DNA of 64,000 bases from Candidatus Margulisiibacteriota bacterium (GCA_034723395.1 JAYEOW010000029.1:64001-128000); one strand, 5' to 3'; positions 16,538 through 56,745 are shown, numbered from the stretch's first letter. Notes: generated by a model from the letters alone, not told the origin. Numbers and translations are program-made.

Positions 16538-16565
16538 TTATCGGACATTACTTTGGGCGATTTCA
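16538..16565 (-). promoter_or_regulatory. Sigma-28-like promoter upstream of rpoD, inside the dnaG 3' end
   Basis: TGAAA-tcgcccaaagtaatg-TCCGATAA, then taatttGGAGG RBS. Confidence 0.65.
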
Positions 16566-18289
16566 CTTTTTAGGGCAGAAAGTAATTGTGAGACTTTTTG
16601 GGTCTCACCTTTTTTTTCTGCCTCCCGGATCTCTGTTTTTAAGATCTCTATTTTGTTTTTTTGCCGCACCCCTTTTATTACGTTTATGCAGTCTTCCATG
16701 ATCTGTTTGTCGTCGCTGCTATGGACCAATCGATCGCTCATTAATATTCCGGATAAGAACTTCCTGGTCCCTTCTTCCGGCAAGTTGTCCAGGATAAAAT
16801 GGGCCGGATTATTGTTTTCTGCTTCCGCAGAAAACATAAGTTCGGCGATCTTTTTTATGTCCGGGATAGAGAAATCGTCCACTTTTAGATGGTCTCTTAA
16901 TGTTTTTAACGATCCAGCATTTTGGGCGGCAATGGCAATGATCGTTTTTTCCGCTTCGTGGACCTTTGAGGCCGGCTTCTCGGTTTTTCTATGCAGCAAC
17001 CCTCTTCCCATCCTTTTATATTGTTTAGATCGCTTGGTTTCAGATAAGATCGTGTCCGTGCTTGTTTTGAGAACAGGAGCGATCAGTTTTGCATACTCTT
17101 TCTGGACAAAGGGATCTTTCTCGGTATTCAGCAAGGCGGAGACTTCTTGGAGTGCCTTTCCTCTCCCTTCGATCTCTTTAAGATTGTGGCGTAACAAGGT
17201 TCGATTGATTTTAAATTCAAGATAGGGGAGGGAAGAATTTAAGCATTGGTCAAATCCTTCCCTTCCCAACTTATTGATTATTTCATCGGGATCTTTTCCG
17301 CCCGAAAGTTTTGCAACCTTTACCTTTAATCCCTGGCCCCTGAGCAGTTCAATCGAACGCTCGGCCGCGATCCCGCCGGCCGCATCGGCGTCGAATCCCA
17401 GTATTACTGTATCGCAGTAGCGCGACAATAACTTGCACTGGTTAACGGTCAATGCTGTCCCCAAGGTGGCGACGATATTCGTGATCCCTGCTTGGAACGG
17501 GGTGATCAGATCAAAGTACCCTTCGACCATCACTGCGGTTTTGCTCTTCTTAATACTATCTTTCGAAAGATCCAAACCAAAAAGAGTTTCTCCTTTGTGA
17601 TAGATCAAGGTGTCGGAGGAATTCATGTACTTGGGCTCTTCATCCCCGAGCGATCTCCCGCCAAAAGCCAAGACCCTTCCGCGCTGGTCGCAGATGGTAA
17701 AGATCAAGCGGTTGCGGAAACGGTCGTAATAACCGCTTTTCCCTTCCCGGGCGAGGATCAAACCGCTCTTTTCGATCAGTTGGGGATCGACTCCGCGCGA
17801 TACCAGATGTTTGAAAAGATTATCCCAGCCGGGCAGGGCAAAACCCAAGCGGAAGGCTTCTTTTGTTTTATCGGTTATCTTTCTCTTCTTTAAATATGCC
17901 AGGGCCTCATCATTTAGATTACTTTGAAAATAATCGGCGGCGAGCTTCATGACCTGATAGAGCTTGTCTTTTTCGCCGCGCGAACGGCCTGCGGTCTTTG
18001 GCTTTGGAACATCTATCCCAACTTTTATCCCAAGTTCTTCAACTGCTTCGACAAAGCTGATATTTTCGATCTTCATTAAGAAGGCAAACGCGTTGCCCCC
18101 CTCGTTGCAGCCGAAACAATGGAAGATCTGTTTCTCAGGGGATACTGTAAACGAGGCATCCTTTTCCGCGTGAAAAGGGCAGAGACCGAGGTAGTTCTTC
18201 CCCCGCTTTTTTAACTGGACAAATTCGGATATCACTTTTACGATATCCGATTTATTTCTTATCTCTTCAATTATATGAGCTGGAATCAT
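16538..18289 (-). CDS. dnaG: DNA primase
   Basis: CPFH...FHCFGC zinc finger, [29 protein letters not shown] motifs. Confidence 0.97.
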
Positions 18290-18292
18290 AGA

Positions 18293-19294
18293 TTAGTTTT
18301 CGGTTCTCCATTCAACAGGGACGAACAGCTCGGAGAATTTGTTAATGGCATAGCGGTCGGTCATTCCGGCGATAAAATCTATCGTGTGTTGGAGTTGGCG
18401 GTCTTCACCTCGGATCCCCTTTTGGAAATATTTATCATAGTGATAGTGCCTAAAAAGATGGCGCATCAGGATCGGGACCTTGGATTCTTCTCTTTTAGCG
18501 ACCGGATTGGTATAAACGTTCTTATACATAAAATCATAAAGTCCATCCATTGCGTTTTGTACGTTTCTGCTCATTTTTATTTTATTTTTTTCAAGCGAGT
18601 GTTTGATAATATCCGGTACGATAGAATCTAAAATATTTTCACCTAAAACCTTCATGTGTTTTCGCGGGAGATCTTTTTTGGCCAAAACTCCCGCGGTGAT
18701 CGCGTCTTCAATATCGTGCCTCAGATATGCGATCCGGTCGGCCAGCCGAACAATGCATCCTTCAAGCGTTTTCGGCCAGGGATCGTTGGGGGTGTGATTT
18801 CTGATCCCATCGATTACCTCACAGGTTAAGTTGAGCCCTTTACCATGTTTTTCTAACACTTCAACCACCCGAGCGCTTTGTTCGTTATGAAAAAAGCGCT
18901 TCCCGTAATTTTCGCGCAATATATCGTCGAGAGCAAATTCCCCGGCGTGCCCAAACGGGGTGTGTCCAAGGTCGTGTCCCAGGGCGATCGCTTCGGCCAA
19001 GTCTTCGTTCAGTGCCAGGGCGCGGGCGATCGTGCGTGCGATCTGGGCAACCTCGATCGTATGGGTAAGCCGTGTCCTAAAGTGATCCTCGGCGGGAGAG
19101 ATGAATACCTGAGTTTTATGTTTGAGCCTCCGGAATGATTTACAATGAAGGATCTTATCCCGATCGCGCTGGTAGGCGGTCCGGATATCGCACTCTTTTT
19201 CCGGCCGCTTCCTCCCTTTACTTTGGGATGAGAGGGCCGCATAGCGCGAGAGCTCTTTTTTCTCTCGCGCTTCTAACTCTTTGCGGATTATCAT
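18293..19294 (-). CDS. dgt: Deoxyguanosinetriphosphate triphosphohydrolase-like HD protein
   Basis: [45 protein letters not shown]. Confidence 0.92.
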
Positions 19295-21993
19295 TTGCCC
19301 TTTTTTAATACAGCCTGGGCCGCTGCCAGTCTCGCGATCGGAACACGATAAGGTGAACAGCTTACATAATTGAGACCGATATTGTGGCAGAACTCAACCG
19401 AAGATGGTTCTCCTCCGTGTTCACCGCAGATACCGACTTTAAGCTTCTTGTTGGTCTTTCTCCCTTTCTCGACGCCCATTTTTACCAGTTGCCCGACACC
19501 GGTCTGGTCCAAGACCTGGAACGGATCGGCTTTGTAGATCCCCATCTCAACATAAGAAGGGAGGAACTTACCGGCGTCATCGCGTGACAGTCCCATGGTC
19601 ATCTGGGTCAGGTCGTTGGTCCCGAACGAGAAGAACTCGGCCGCTTCAGCGATCTTATCGGCGGTCAGCGCGGCGCGCGGGATCTCGATCATTGTCCCGA
19701 CCAGGTAGCTTACCTTGGTGCCGTATTTCTTGATCGTCTCTTCGGCAACGCGGCGGATAATCGCTTCCTGGTTCTTGAACTCGGCAACATCTGATATCAG
19801 CGGGACCATGATCTCTGGTTTTACCGCGACACCATTTTTCTTTAGTTCGCAAGCCGCTTCCATGATCGCGCGGGCCTGCATTTCGGTTATTTCCGGATAG
19901 ATGATCCCGAGGCGGCAGCCGCGATGGCCGAGCATCGGGTTGAATTCGTGAAGAGCAGCGATCTTTTGTTTTATTTTTTTAACGTTTACTCCCATCTCTT
20001 CAGCCATCTCATGCTGCTGGGCGGCTTCGTGCGGAACGAATTCGTGCAGTGGAGGATCGAGCAGGCGGATGGTGACTGGTAATCCCTTCATTGCCTTAAA
20101 GATCCCGACAAAGTCGGCTTTTTGTATTGGAAGAAGTTTGGCCAATGCCTTTTTTCTCCCTTCGAGATTGTCGGCCAGGATCATTTCGCGGACCGCTTTG
20201 ATCCTATCTCCTTCGAAGAACATATGCTCGGTACGGCAGAGGCCGATCCCTTCGGCGCCAAAGTCGCGGGCGACCTTCGAATCTTTCGGGGTATCGACAT
20301 TGGTGCGGACATTTAGTTTTCTGACCTTGTCTGCCCATTTCATGACCTTGCCGAAGTTTCCGGAAAGCTCGGGAATAATGGTTGGGACCAATCCTTTGAT
20401 AACTTCGCCAGCGCTTCCATCCAACGAAATCCAATCTCCCTCTTTAATCACGGTGCTGTTAACGTTAAACTGCTTTGTTTTATAATCAATATTTACCACT
20501 CCGCATCCGGCGACACAGCACTTACCCATTCCGCGGGCAACCACTGCGGCATGAGAGGTCATTCCTCCGCGGGCGGTCAGAATTCCCTGAGCGGCGTGCA
20601 TTCCGCCGATATCTTCGGGAGAGGTCTCGATCCTTACCAGGATTACCTTCTTTCCGTCCTTTGCCCATGCTTCCGCTTCGTCAGCATGGAAGACAGCTTG
20701 TCCGGTAGCAGCGCCGGGAGAGGCGGGGAGCCCTTTGGCGATAATATCTTTTTCGGCCTTAGGATCAAACATCGGATGCAGTAGTTGATCAACCTGATCC
20801 GGAGAAATCCTTAAGATCGCGGTCTTTTCGTTGATCATTTTCTCTTTAACCATATCGCAGGCGATCTTTAATGCGGCGGCCGCAGTTCGCTTTCCGGTTC
20901 TGGTTTGCAGCATCCAAAGCTTCCCCTTCTGGATCGTAAACTCAATATCCTGCATATCCCTATAATGCTTTTCGAGCTTTTTGTAAATTGCTACCAGTGT
21001 TTTGTAAGGACCAGGCATAACTTCTTCCAAAGTCTCCTGATCTTCAGATGACTTGGTGGAATTGTTGATTGGTTGCGGGGTCCTGATCCCGGCAACGACA
21101 TCTTCTCCCTGGGCATTGATCAGGTATTCTCCGTAGAATTTTTTCTCTCCGGTAGCTGGATTTCTGGTAAAGGCGACCCCTGTACCCGAATCGTCCCCCA
21201 TGTTTCCGTAAACCATCGATTGGACGTTTACCGCGGTTCCCCATTCGTGCGGGATCTTGTTTATAATTCTGTACTTGATCGCCCTTTCCGCATTCCATGA
21301 TCCGAAGACAGCTTCGATCGCGCCCCAAAGTTGCTTCCAAGGATCTTCAGGGAAATCGATCCCTTTCCGTTCCTTGATCGCTGCCTTAAAACGTTTGACC
21401 AATTCTTTAAGATCGTCGACTTCCAGGTCGAGGTCGTTTTTTACCCCTTTTTCGTGTTTAACTTCATCCATGATTTCCTCGAATGGATCGATATCGGTTT
21501 TTGTTCTAGGTTTTAGGTCCAAAACGACATCGCCGTACATTTGGACAAATCTTCGATAGGCGTCCCAGGCAAATCTTTCGTTGCCCGATTGTTTAGCCAG
21601 CCCCAGAACGGTTTGATCGTTCAATCCCAAGTTTAATACGGTATCCATCATCCCCGGCATCGATATCCTGGCTCCCGACCTGACCGATACGAGCAAGGGG
21701 TTATTTTTATCTCCGAATTTTGGCCCCATTACCTTTTCGATATGGGCCATTCCGGTATGGATCTGGACATTTAGCTCCTTAGGATATTTCCGGTTCATCT
21801 TGTAATAAACCGCGCACATTTCTGTAGTGATGGTGAATCCGGCCGGGACGGGGATCCCGATATTTGACATCTCTGCCAGGTTGGCGCCTTTACCTCCCAA
21901 CAGATTTTTCATTTCTGATTTGCCGTCTGCTTTCCCTCCACCGAACTTATAGACATACTTTTTCCCTTTTTCTGATCCCTTTTTCTTTGCCAT
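19291..21993 (-). CDS. ppdK: Pyruvate, phosphate dikinase
   Basis: [44 protein letters not shown]. Confidence 0.97.
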
Positions 21994-56609: not shown

Positions 56610-56640
56610 CTCATAATCCTCCCTATTTTCTCCTATATAT

Positions 56641-56668
56641 ATATCGGCACTTTTTTAGGTAAATTTCA
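56641..56668 (-). promoter_or_regulatory. Sigma-28-like promoter
   Basis: TGAAA-tttacctaaaaaagt-GCCGATAT. Confidence 0.75.
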
Positions 56669-56717
56669 CTATTTTTAAAGATTTGTCCGGGCCGTTTTGG
56701 CCCTTTCAGCTATCTTA

Positions 56718-56745
56718 TTATCGGGAGGATTTGGGAGAAATTTCA
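56718..56745 (-). promoter_or_regulatory. Second, tandem sigma-28-like promoter
   Basis: TGAAA-tttctcccaaatcct-CCCGATAA. Confidence 0.65.

Follow-up and report, generated by a model that had tools for sequence, protein, structure and literature searches.

Seven promoter-like sites and the genes behind them

The window, a stretch of 64,000 nt from a Candidatus Margulisiibacteriota bacterium (GCA_034723395.1, JAYEOW010000029.1:64001-128000), was originally predicted to carry seven copies of a bipartite motif, and all seven are present where they had been placed, each with TGAAA, exactly 15 nt and an 8-nt box. The features concerned are listed here, with distances running from the end of the box to the ATG; class 1 is the motif class defined below.

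34..1662, + strand: 3' part of a 747-aa RelA/SpoT-domain gene, downstream of an 81-aa gene
15465..16520, - strand: rpoD, primary sigma factor, 351 aa (Pfam regions 1.2, 2, 3 and 4; NCBIfam RpoD)
16538..16565, - strand: class-1 site, TGAAATCG-N12-TCCGATAA, within the 3' end of dnaG; rpoD starts 17 nt downstream
24772..24799, + strand: class-1 site, 9 nt before ATG, without Shine-Dalgarno
24809..27928, + strand: 1039-aa TPR protein (Pfam TPR), 0 D/E and 5 R in residues 2-26
27971..27998, + strand: class-1 site, 21 nt before ATG, with Shine-Dalgarno
28020..28427, + strand: 135-aa orphan, acid-free N-terminus, no Pfam or NCBIfam match
28447..28474, + strand: class-1 site, 7 nt before ATG, without Shine-Dalgarno
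28482..30344, + strand: 620-aa modular protein with basic N-terminus, unnamed middle domain and GNAT-like C-terminus
52680..54947, - strand: 755-aa protein with Ig-like repeats, 21 nt downstream of the 212-aa lipoprotein gene
54969..55607, - strand: 212-aa lipoprotein, Sec-type hydrophobic signal and lipobox Cys, no family match
55637..55664, - strand: class-1 site, 29 nt before the 212-aa lipoprotein
55677..56609, - strand: 310-aa orphan lipoprotein, Tat signal at residues 24-44, preceded by a basic extension of 23 residues
56641..56668, - strand: class-1 site, proximal copy, 31 nt before the 310-aa lipoprotein
56718..56745, - strand: class-1 site, distal tandem copy, 108 nt before the 310-aa lipoprotein

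The -35 element extends to TGAAATTT at six of the seven sites and to TGAAATCG at 16565 (-). Every site does lie just upstream of a start, but they serve six genes rather than seven, because 56745 and 56668 form a tandem pair before the single 310-aa gene. The site attributed to rpoD indeed precedes it, with the correction that it falls inside the last 28 nt of dnaG; a counterpart was found upstream of rpoD in four of five relatives tested. RpoD is a cytoplasmic target with an ordinary N-terminus (3 acidic residues in residues 2-26). About 1 kb before the window, a further class-1 site stands ahead of the 81-aa gene and then the RelA/SpoT-domain gene, which, if the two are co-transcribed, probably belongs to the regulon.

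The earlier gene labels broadly hold: RpoD and TPR were recovered by Pfam and the GNAT-like assignment stands, whereas GAF was not confirmed and the C-terminal beta-barrel of the 755-aa protein is an Atlas lead only (scores below 0.9). That protein, with no signal peptide seen at its called start, is likely co-transcribed with the 212-aa lipoprotein. The genes behind the sites at 24772 and 28447 are likely leaderless. The 1039-aa TPR protein, with its acid-free, Arg-rich N-terminus, is a candidate exported substrate, as is the 135-aa orphan. For the 620-aa protein we found 71 relatives, in which the middle domain is joined to other enzymes; 43 full-length relatives average 1.4 D/E and 3.3 R in residues 2-26, three of eight short relatives have GNAT Pfam matches, and others are acyltransferase or methyltransferase fusions. 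Part of the basic N-terminus in this family resembles a conserved helix rather than a free signal, which counts against export. The Tat signal of the 310-aa lipoprotein scores 24.3 bits with TIGR01409 (cut-off 16.7), and no relatives of this protein were found.

A sigma-28-type motif and two FliA-like sigma factors

When a matrix built from the seven window sites only was scored outside the window at a threshold of at least 16 bits, it gave 57 matches at spacer 15, 42 of them with a start 3-60 nt downstream, a test passed by 256 of 5000 random positions. Spacers of 13, 14, 16, 17 and 18 gave 3, 8, 8, 7 and 5 matches, with 0, 1, 3, 1 and 0 starts. A refined matrix yielded 93 matches of at least 17 bits against 5, 1, 3, 1 and 2 in five local shuffles, a figure that is partly circular because this matrix was trained on the same genome. 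The motif is present in all 65 genomes of the class (Saganbacteria/WOR-1), at 7-178 exact copies each compared with 0-2 for reversed and spacer+2 controls, and in 140 of the 146 genomes of the phylum.

The class-1 consensus is TGAAATTT-N12-nnCGATA(A/T). Its -10 core GATA is nearly invariant, with C before it in 65/83, and agrees with the sigma-28 element GCCGATAA; the extended -10 GC is weak (G 34/83, C 30/83), and the canonical -35 (C)TAAAG was not found, TGAAATTT differing at three of six positions in the P. aeruginosa register. According to the promoter description in PMC12784957, P. aeruginosa sigma-28 uses a -35 of TCTAAAG at -36 to -30 and a -10 of GCCGATAA at -15 to -8. Our boxes fall in the same register, which would place +1 seven nucleotides past the box. 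Start calls made without regard to the motif put the first ATG 4-12 nt past the box in 30 of 70 targets, and in a curated set a Shine-Dalgarno precedes only 2 of 34 starts at this distance versus 39 of 54 with longer leaders. The original remark that other housekeeping genes carry sigma-70 boxes was given a crude check, which placed near-consensus boxes before 6 of 79 targets versus 197 of 1309 other genes. A second motif class has the same -10 box and a -35 of GCAAGTTT.

Judging from these features, to which fixed spacing and orientation to the start, as in sigma-28 promoters, can be added, the motif is very likely a sigma-28-type promoter ahead of ~90 genes. The lineage-specific variant with an altered -35 that had been proposed is supported by register, strict spacing and phylum-wide conservation, and also by two FliA/WhiG-like sigma genes in flagellar-type operons of a genome in which flagellin was not found. 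It is very improbable that the motif is instead a transcription-factor site or the end of a mobile element. Such elements would have to account for two non-palindromic boxes, a spacer free in sequence and fixed in length, strict orientation, an upstream flank rich in A, and ATGs without leaders at the expected +1; the point in their favour is that both FliA-like proteins score under the FliA/WhiG cut-off.

These two genes, sigA and sigB, were recovered in a search for FliA/WhiG-family sigma factors and lie inside two machine operons. FliA/WhiG is the best NCBIfam and PDB match of both, yet at 135.6 and 75.1 bits they remain below the curated cut-off of 189.6. SigB has 196 aa and aligns in regions 2 and 4 only; it keeps the S224 equivalent of the -35 helix (SESQVSR vs SESRVSQ). 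Both sigmas carry Arg at the Q228 position, and neither keeps an equivalent of R97, the Arg responsible for recognising the extended -10 GC, whose two positions are weak in the motif.

A near-perfect sigma-70 box precedes the rod operon carrying SigA (before flgF), and 11 of 13 class loci have such a box before flgF with at most 3 mismatches and an intact TATAAT. Class-2 sites precede both FliK-like genes and the export-gate operon, whose last gene is sigB in most relatives; of the 11 class loci holding the FliK-like head gene, 9 have a class-2 site before it. Upstream of rpoD there is a class-1 site, as there is before a pair formed by a small gene and sigB; the pair has one upstream in 9 of 15 relatives, and sigB loci from other classes have one just upstream in 1 of 20. 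Co-occurrence cannot assign a sigma to a motif, because both sigmas (sigB in 136/146 genomes) and both motifs are phylum-wide; the class-1 motif is nonetheless likely read by the short SigB. In the cascade that this arrangement suggests, sigma-70 would drive SigA, SigA would turn on the machine and small and giant substrates through class 2, and SigB would then direct the cargo, sigB itself and rpoD through class 1. No FlgM was found by Pfam or with an E. coli query, and a 77-aa look-alike is backed by neither a family nor a PDB match. What is new is this putative three-tier order (sigma-70, SigA, SigB, then rpoD) together with the evidence on the nature of the targets. The original prediction had neither the second sigma nor the second promoter class, and it did not include the export machine.

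A flagellum-derived machine and its putative cargo

A search for flagellar and type III genes showed that the basal body and export gate are kept. FlhA, FlhB with NPTH, FliP/Q/R, FliI/H/J and FliF, which with FliK make up a flagellar type III export apparatus, are accompanied by the rod, the L and P rings (FlgH and FlgI, not replaced by a secretin), two FliK-like genes, a 271-aa FlgE-slot protein and a 154-aa half FliG. Profile searches and an E. coli panel found no flagellin, FlgK or MotB in the genome, where single absences are soft because it is 97% complete in 55 contigs; misses of the panel weigh less than those of profiles, because it missed FliM, FliO and FliJ, all present. Across the class, FlhA is found in 62 of 65 genomes and flagellin in one. 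The flagellin, hook junction, stator and chemotaxis genes of a motility flagellum were not found, nor were FlgD, a hook cap, needle, tip or translocon identified; 26 class-2 or neighbouring proteins gave no family match to injectisome parts, class I chaperones included. A contractile sheath and a microcompartment shell were not found in the genome either.

The motif does enumerate unannotated genes, as originally proposed: no Pfam family was assigned to 51 of the 81 targets scanned, compared with 2 of 36 non-target genes of the window. Most targets are either orphans or additional copies of enzymes, extended at the N-terminus; flagellin, FlgM and chemotaxis genes were not found among them. The extra copies (PGM, PGK, PFK, dGTPase, Rel and a GAPDH-like protein) retain their catalytic motifs, and at the N-terminus they are longer than the housekeeping copies by roughly 9-65 residues; the extension of PGK differs freely from one relative to the next. 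Even in the glycolytic cluster, nearly all cargo genes have promoters of their own. Some targets, a minority comprising rpoD and about seven proteins with Sec signals, presumably act at home.

In the genome under study (G000), 50 of 70 targets have acid-poor, non-hydrophobic N-termini versus 208 of 1294 other proteins, and 18 of 28 versus 51 of 413 when only Shine-Dalgarno-supported starts are counted; hydrophobic N-termini occur in 5 of 70 targets. The signature repeats in two other families of the class (G005, 16/33 vs 47/295; G064, 9/15 vs 57/319) and is not enriched in a genome of another class (G090, 10/32 vs 54/198; cross-genome AUC 0.58-0.59). The depletion of D/E is restricted to the N-terminus (0.038 vs 0.114; body 0.114 vs 0.122), where the value in G000 falls below the nucleotide-shuffle expectation of 0.079, in frame only. 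In G005 and G064, D/E is not clearly below that expectation (p 0.05 and 0.24), and the N-termini there may therefore be simply unconstrained. The Arg-rich signature is absent from the machine's structural substrates (FlgB, FlgC, FliE, FliK) and from class-2 targets. Three N-terminal rules are described for P. syringae type III effectors in PMC3338616, of which each genome follows only one: no acidic residue in the first 12 in G000 (50/65 vs 292/942; no enrichment in G005, G064 or G090), an aliphatic residue or Pro at position 3/4, weakly, in G005 (21/31) and G064 (11/14) and not enriched in G000, and at least 10% Ser in the first 50 in G090 (24/30 vs 84/165; not enriched in G000). We infer that the acid-poor N-termini are export signals.

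With modest confidence, we favour reading the regulon as a late sigma-28 programme of exported, host-directed proteins, most of which would leave through the flagellum-derived type III machine, for which neither filament nor motor genes were found. The host- or prey-interaction programme first suggested, which we still infer, is backed by the N-terminal signature and the retained machine. The recipient would be another cell, and in this class probably a bacterium: among the cargo are sigma-domain proteins, Rel enzymes, histidine kinases and a Tat lipoprotein. The last would need TatC, which the sender seems to lack; TatC was not found in G000 and was found in 5 of 65 class genomes. In G090, of 65 neighbours sampled, 33 are ordinary housekeeping proteins; among 30 direct targets there is none, and 5 have RING, ARM, ankyrin or Ser/Thr-kinase domains. 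Such eukaryote-type domains also occur in 4 of the 65 neighbours, one of them an IpgD-like protein without a class-1 site.

Somewhat unlikely, yet to be taken seriously, is a sigma-28-type life-stage programme (dispersal, dormancy or an attack form) whose products act in the cell or envelope. On this view the surplus copies of glycolytic, Rel, kinase and sigma proteins would be stage-specific isoenzymes, the odd N-termini unconstrained additions gained with leaderless or young genes, and the basal body a structure with another purpose that exports class-2 products only. The retained catalytic motifs, rpoD and the Sec-signal proteins among the targets, N-termini that in G005 and G064 come close to what shuffling predicts and that in G090 are not acid-poor, and the broad attack-phase programme that FliA runs in Bdellovibrio (PMC3627812) fit this reading. 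It sits less well with in-frame acid avoidance below random expectation in G000, seen also at Shine-Dalgarno starts, with a Tat-signal lipoprotein in a genome where TatC was not found, with separate promoters nearly throughout, with sigB closing the export-gate operon in most relatives and with RING/ARM/ankyrin cargo in G090.

Export or packaging by another route (type IV pilus/type II, type IV secretion or vesicles), or basic N-termini that address a membrane or organelle after eukaryotic uptake, is improbable. The extensions, being Arg-rich, acid-free and Gly/Ser-rich, are also similar to organellar presequences. A needle and translocon were not found, and a Margulisbacterium lives intracellularly in Trichoplax (PMC6784892). 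Against these routes, type II needs Sec or Tat signals that most targets do not have, neither sheath nor shell was found, and the cognate sigma candidates are located in flagellar-type operons.

Extending export through the flagellum-derived machine to the whole phylum is a tentative step: Margulisbacteria may be host-dependent and may have turned the flagellum into a delivery machine apart from the injectisome, timed by a cascade of two diverged sigma-28 factors whose late promoter lists the effectors of each genome, with Saganbacteria aiming at a bacterial host and another class at a eukaryote. If true, the Saganbacteria arsenal would comprise enzymes, sigma factors, alarmone enzymes and Tat lipoproteins, and that of the other class ubiquitin-ligase, ARM, ankyrin and kinase proteins. 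To our knowledge, groundwater Saganbacteria have so far been known only by their metabolism.

Comparison with known systems

The promoter shares with P. aeruginosa sigma-28, as that system is described in PMC12784957, the -10 core CGATAA, the box register and the S224 equivalent in SigB, and differs in its -35 (TGAAATTT in class 1, GCAAGTTT in class 2), in Arg at Q228, in the lost R97 equivalent and in the weak extended GC. The attack-phase FliA motif given for Bdellovibrio bacteriovorus, TTAAG-N16-CCGATA (PMC3627812), has the same geometry as TGAAA- or GCAAG-N16-nCGATA here, and that account likewise describes ~90 promoters, many hypothetical proteins and a life-stage programme of a host-dependent cell; Bdellovibrio is flagellated, with one FliA named there. 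In our genome, by contrast, there are two sigmas of the FliA kind and two classes of motif, the cargo has export-like N-termini, and no gene for a filament was found.

Chlamydia, also host-dependent, expresses late genes from sigma-28 without a flagellum, which is the likeness to the present case; unlike here, its injectisome is a separate system and its sigma-28 regulon is very small. Effectors of injectisomes, as outlined in PMC3338616, resemble the targets in their non-cleaved, variable, acid-poor N-termini and in being dispersed, lineage-specific genes under one motif, and differ in that this class's cargo suggests a bacterial recipient and that each genome follows only one of three rules. 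Unlike injectisomes, the machine has P and L rings, a rod and FliO, and needle, tip and translocon were not identified. Buchnera keeps hook-basal bodies. Lysobacter enzymogenes OH11 is described as using a flagellin-less flagellar type III system for FliI-dependent secretion of enzymes against other microbes (PMC7688988). As in these two, export gate and ATPase are retained without functional flagellin; unlike in either, there are two FliK-like genes, a short FlgE-slot protein, half a FliG and no FlgD found, the machine is conserved phylum-wide (FlhA in 62/65 genomes of the class, sigB in 136/146), and it comes with a dedicated sigma cascade and ~90 candidate substrates.

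A two-box motif and its reading as a promoter

The window (C29:64001-128000) belongs to a source genome, here G000, of 1.68 Mb in 55 contigs that is 97% complete. In the original prediction, seven copies of a two-box motif (class 1: a TGAAA-type -35 box and a sigma-28-type -10 box, 15 nt apart) each led into a start codon. All seven are exactly as described, but they serve only six genes, 56745 and 56668 being a tandem pair before the gene of a 310-aa lipoprotein; the gaps from box to ATG are 17, 9, 21, 7, 29, 31 and 108 nt. The stretch upstream of the tandem sites, 56947-63947, encodes surface proteins of the SLH-domain and Ig-like types, and none of these genes has a class-1 site scoring over 11 bits.

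A matrix built from the seven window sites only, run over the rest of the genome at ≥16 bits, gave 57 matches with the 15-nt spacer, 42 of which have a start 3-60 nt downstream. Five other spacers gave 3-8 matches each (0-3 with a start), and 256 of 5000 random positions passed the same start criterion. The refined class-1 consensus has an A-rich flank followed by (G/C)TGAAATTT; after 12 unconstrained positions come two weakly conserved ones and CGATA(A/T). Its matrix, which was trained on G000, found 93 sites there as opposed to 1-5 in five shuffles. The scan of relatives also bore out the prediction: the exact pattern is present in 65/65 genomes of the class (Saganbacteria, sisters of the Cyanobacteria lineage), at 7-178 copies each against 0-2 for controls with the pattern reversed or the spacer two bases longer, and in 140 of 146 genomes of the phylum. 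The curated set of 90 G000 targets leaves out sites inside long ORFs, ORF-less sites, five doubtful assignments and duplicate sites.

Four strong sites have long leaders or no protein start nearby and could belong to small RNAs or RNA leaders:
C6:7488 (+), strong site
C33:7471 (+), strong site
C3:14842 (+), strong site
C9:2709 (-), strong site
Two contig ends carry near-identical sites, C2:207(-) and C44:207(-), with ATG at the start position in one and ATA in the other.

In the Pseudomonas aeruginosa sigma-28 open complex the boxes are TCTAAAG (-36 to -30) and GCCGATAA (-15 to -8), S224 and Q228 reading -36 to -34 and R97 reading the GC of the extended -10 (PMC12784957, in part). The class-1 motif follows this register except at -35, -34 and -30, where its bases differ, as expected of the predicted sigma-28 variant with an altered -35 box. 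The register places the predicted +1 seven bases past the box. The Bdellovibrio FliA motif, TTAAG-N16-CCGATA, has the same spacing (PMC3627812, in part). With start calls made blind to the motif, the first ATG falls 4-12 nt past the box in 30 of 70 G000 targets, in 7/15 and 1/33 in G064 and G005 (other families of the class) and in 5/32 in G090 (another class of the phylum). In the curated set, whose start choice favoured box-near ATGs, a Shine-Dalgarno sequence precedes 2 of 34 starts with short leaders versus 39 of 54 with long ones. These leader lengths support the predicted +1 indirectly. On sequence grounds, the class-1 motif is almost certainly a promoter and its reader very likely a FliA-like sigma.

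Two FliA-like sigmas and a second motif class

The FliA/WhiG-family sigma anticipated by the prediction was found in part: the genome encodes two FliA-like proteins, labelled here SigA and SigB, and both score under the FliA/WhiG cut-off. The remaining inventory comprises RpoD, one ECF sigma and two sigma-domain proteins preceded by the motif:
C55, within the rod operon: SigA, 246 aa, FliA-like
C46: SigB, 196 aa, FliA-like
C31:18582-19250: sigma-70-domain protein, 222 aa, leaderless class-1 site, basic N-terminus
C33:3291-5624: sigma-70-domain protein, 777 aa, leaderless class-1 site, basic N-terminus
The last two are candidate exported sigma factors. In G090, a strong class-1 site lies 75 nt before the gene of a second RpoD-like sigma (L228:14186-15277).

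Arg takes the place of Q228 in SigA as well as SigB, and neither has an equivalent of R97, which agrees with an altered -35 box and a weak extended -10. A second motif, class 2, combines GCAAGTTT with the spacing and -10 box of class 1; there are 15 exact copies and ~25 strong sites in G000, and the motif occurs in 113/146 phylum genomes. Class-2 sites lie upstream of the export-gate operon, of each of the two FliK-like genes and of a number of small genes, as well as of giant genes (1152-3665 aa). Pairing each sigma with a motif by co-occurrence was undone by all four being phylum-wide, SigB in 136/146 and SigA in 114/146 genomes at differing thresholds.

In the rod operon, which holds sigA, flgF is preceded by the following element:
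C55:1-174 (locus L009): perfect sigma-70 box, TTGACA-N17-TATAAT, 9 nt before the flgF start
A box resembling this one is found in 11/13 class loci, and the G000 rod operon seems to be sigma-70-driven and leaderless. In most relatives sigB is the last gene of the export-gate operon, after a small gene; this pair is preceded by a class-1 site in 9/15 relatives, a site that is degenerate in G000, and outside the class only 1 of 20 sigB loci has one upstream. The rpoD gene is preceded by a class-1 site in G000 and 4/5 relatives. The 111-aa gene before sigB gave a helical model (pLDDT 74.5) with nameless Atlas matches and no fold match. In G000 a block of secreted surface-protein genes (C46:2738-19769; L010, L063) lies between flhA and the small gene-sigB pair, and most relatives differ.

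SigB is probably the reader of class 1. The simplest order that we infer runs from sigma-70 to SigA and class 2, and from there to SigB and class 1, with feedback on sigB and rpoD.

The flagellum-derived machine

The flagellar or type III genes that the prediction looked for are present: G000 encodes FlhA, FlhB (with its NPTH site), FliP, FliQ, FliR, FliO, FliH, FliI and FliJ, as well as FliM, FliN, FliF, FliE, FlgA, FlgB, FlgC, FlgF, FlgG, FlgH and FlgI. The FlgE slot is taken by a 271-aa protein, FliG is 154 aa long, and there are two FliK-like proteins; the FlgJ label of a 100-aa gene comes from position only. Gene order in both operons is mostly conserved across the phylum. FlhA occurs in 62/65 class genomes and flagellin in 1/65 (15/146 in the phylum). 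Profile searches of G000 found no flagellin, FlgK, MotB or FlgM, and FlgD, FlgL, FliD, FliS, MotA, chemoreceptor and CheW were unmatched by an E. coli K-12 panel that is weaker than profiles and also overlooked the encoded FliM, FliO and FliJ. Searches for a contractile sheath and a microcompartment shell found none, and no needle or translocon was identified.

Further parts lie on C16:
C16:499-1779 (L179): second FliK-like protein, 426 aa, class-2 site
C16:154-492 (L179): stand-alone FlhB C-terminal paralogue, after the second FliK-like gene
C16:15010-26763 (L179, L180): class-2 gene cluster encoding an 1838-aa protein with four hydrophobic segments and proteins of 97 aa, 77 aa and twice 108 aa
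In most relatives the first two head the rod operon; the cluster is a candidate outer structure or translocon. Its 77-aa protein (C16:18917-19150), by eye an FlgM look-alike, has no Pfam, pairwise or PDB-profile support as FlgM and stands as a lead; as a query it matched in 9/65 class genomes, one match being weak and unrelated. The sole flagellin-domain match of the class (L065, G045:C4:62270-62632) lies in a 253-aa frame with an apparent Sec signal peptide ahead of the flagellin N-terminal domain. The export-gate operon of other classes carries, between fliM and fliN, a gene for a ParA/MinD-like ATPase (L142:1424-2179, L143:866-1609), which is absent from this position in G000.

In the working that we propose, growth-phase sigma-70 would transcribe the rod operon together with SigA; SigA would then switch on the rulers, the export gate and early substrates, and SigB through read-through. 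SigB would amplify itself and drive ~90 units, most of them single genes, with products leaving via the completed machine as flagellin does in motile bacteria, while raised rpoD would ready the cell for its next growth phase.

Target products and comparison with known systems

Orphans are commoner among the targets, 51 of 81 scanned ones having no Pfam family versus 2 of 36 non-target window genes; the main scan covered 81 of the 90 curated targets, with six window genes and the two sigma proteins scanned separately and one left out. Named targets include two Rel proteins, two Ser/Thr kinases, a PP2C phosphatase, histidine-kinase domains, CheR, ADP-ribosylglycohydrolase, a cyclase, HD hydrolases, glycosidases, and PGM, PFK, PGK and PPDK-like enzymes. 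Several are additional copies of a motif-free housekeeping gene, with intact catalytic motifs and N-termini longer by ~9-65 residues; among PGK relatives this extension varies freely and the core is 41-67% identical. A divergent second glycolytic set at C7:5766-22226 (L069) comprises PPDK-like, PGK, GAPDH-like, a 1405-aa PPDK fusion and PFK genes, each with its own class-1 site and catalytic motifs mostly intact.

In 50/70 targets versus 208/1294 other G000 genes (motif-blind starts), the stretch from residue 2 to residue 26 is poor in acidic residues and non-hydrophobic; with Shine-Dalgarno-supported starts the figures are 18/28 versus 51/413. The signature recurs in G005 (16/33 versus 47/295) and G064 (9/15 versus 57/319) and was not reproduced in G090 (10/32 versus 54/198), the G005 and G090 regions having been picked for motif density and G064 being a contiguous 400 kb. 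The bias is limited to the N-terminus, and classifiers transfer within the class at AUC 0.73-0.85. In G000, acidic residues at target N-termini are rarer (0.038) than in same-base shuffles (0.079), in the coding frame only, and AT-bias was rejected as the cause (5' GC 0.44 versus 0.43, with Lys depleted). The 43 full-length relatives of a 620-aa window protein average 1.4 acidic residues and 3.3 Arg in residues 2-26.

Several results count against export. The acid-poor level is close to random expectation in G005 and G064, and neither class-2 targets nor the structural proteins that the machine itself exports show the Arg bias. Just one of three P. syringae rules (PMC3338616, in part) holds in each genome, searches for a needle, translocon and FlgM identified none, and some targets, namely rpoD and about seven proteins with Sec signals, act in the producing cell. 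On the side of export, ordinary housekeeping proteins make up 0/30 direct targets in G090 versus 33/65 neighbours, and 5/30 direct targets have RING, ARM, ankyrin or kinase domains. The neighbours were taken from 198 genes and scored with an E-value of 1e-10, stricter than the 1e-5 used otherwise, and four or more of them have a class-1 site themselves, 75-131 nt upstream. Eukaryote-type domains are also present in 4/65 neighbours, which counts against export. The N-terminal signal is one of the targets as a population, and single targets may be cytoplasmic enzymes. On balance we lean slightly towards export of most targets. An IpgD-family protein in G090 (L242:28-2103) has no class-1 site.

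The 310-aa window lipoprotein, for which no relatives were found, has a Tat signal above cut-off after a basic extension. TatC occurs in 5/65 class genomes and was not found in G000, whose assembly is unclosed; the Tat argument concerns this single confirmed protein. The C11:8972 target, Tat-like by eye, was not confirmed, as it has no TIGR01409 match. The ORF after the site at C33:28407(+) is by eye a Tat-like lipoprotein frame whose standard start codon is absent.

A searchable 28-base motif gives a testable list of tens to more than 100 orphan genes per genome, and the content of the candidate exported cargo would suggest the identity of a host. An intracellular symbiont is known among Margulisbacteria (PMC6784892, in part). 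The system may represent a second flagellum-derived origin of an injection system, probably directed at bacteria here, and its two sigmas and two motifs offer a compact natural test of the sigma-28 helix residues that set -35 specificity. No description of motif or machine was found in the main text of open PubMed Central or bioRxiv papers, and words in flagell-, motil- and secret- are absent from the main text of the main Saganbacteria genomic paper (PMC6349859).

Among known systems, the Bdellovibrio FliA programme (PMC3627812, in part) and the flagellin-less export system of Lysobacter (PMC7688988, in part) resemble the proposed G000 system in how they work. Tests for a canonical -35 box, for motility and for an injectisome all came out negative; the G000 system is therefore a variant of sigma-28 regulons and flagellar type III systems, outside any named system.
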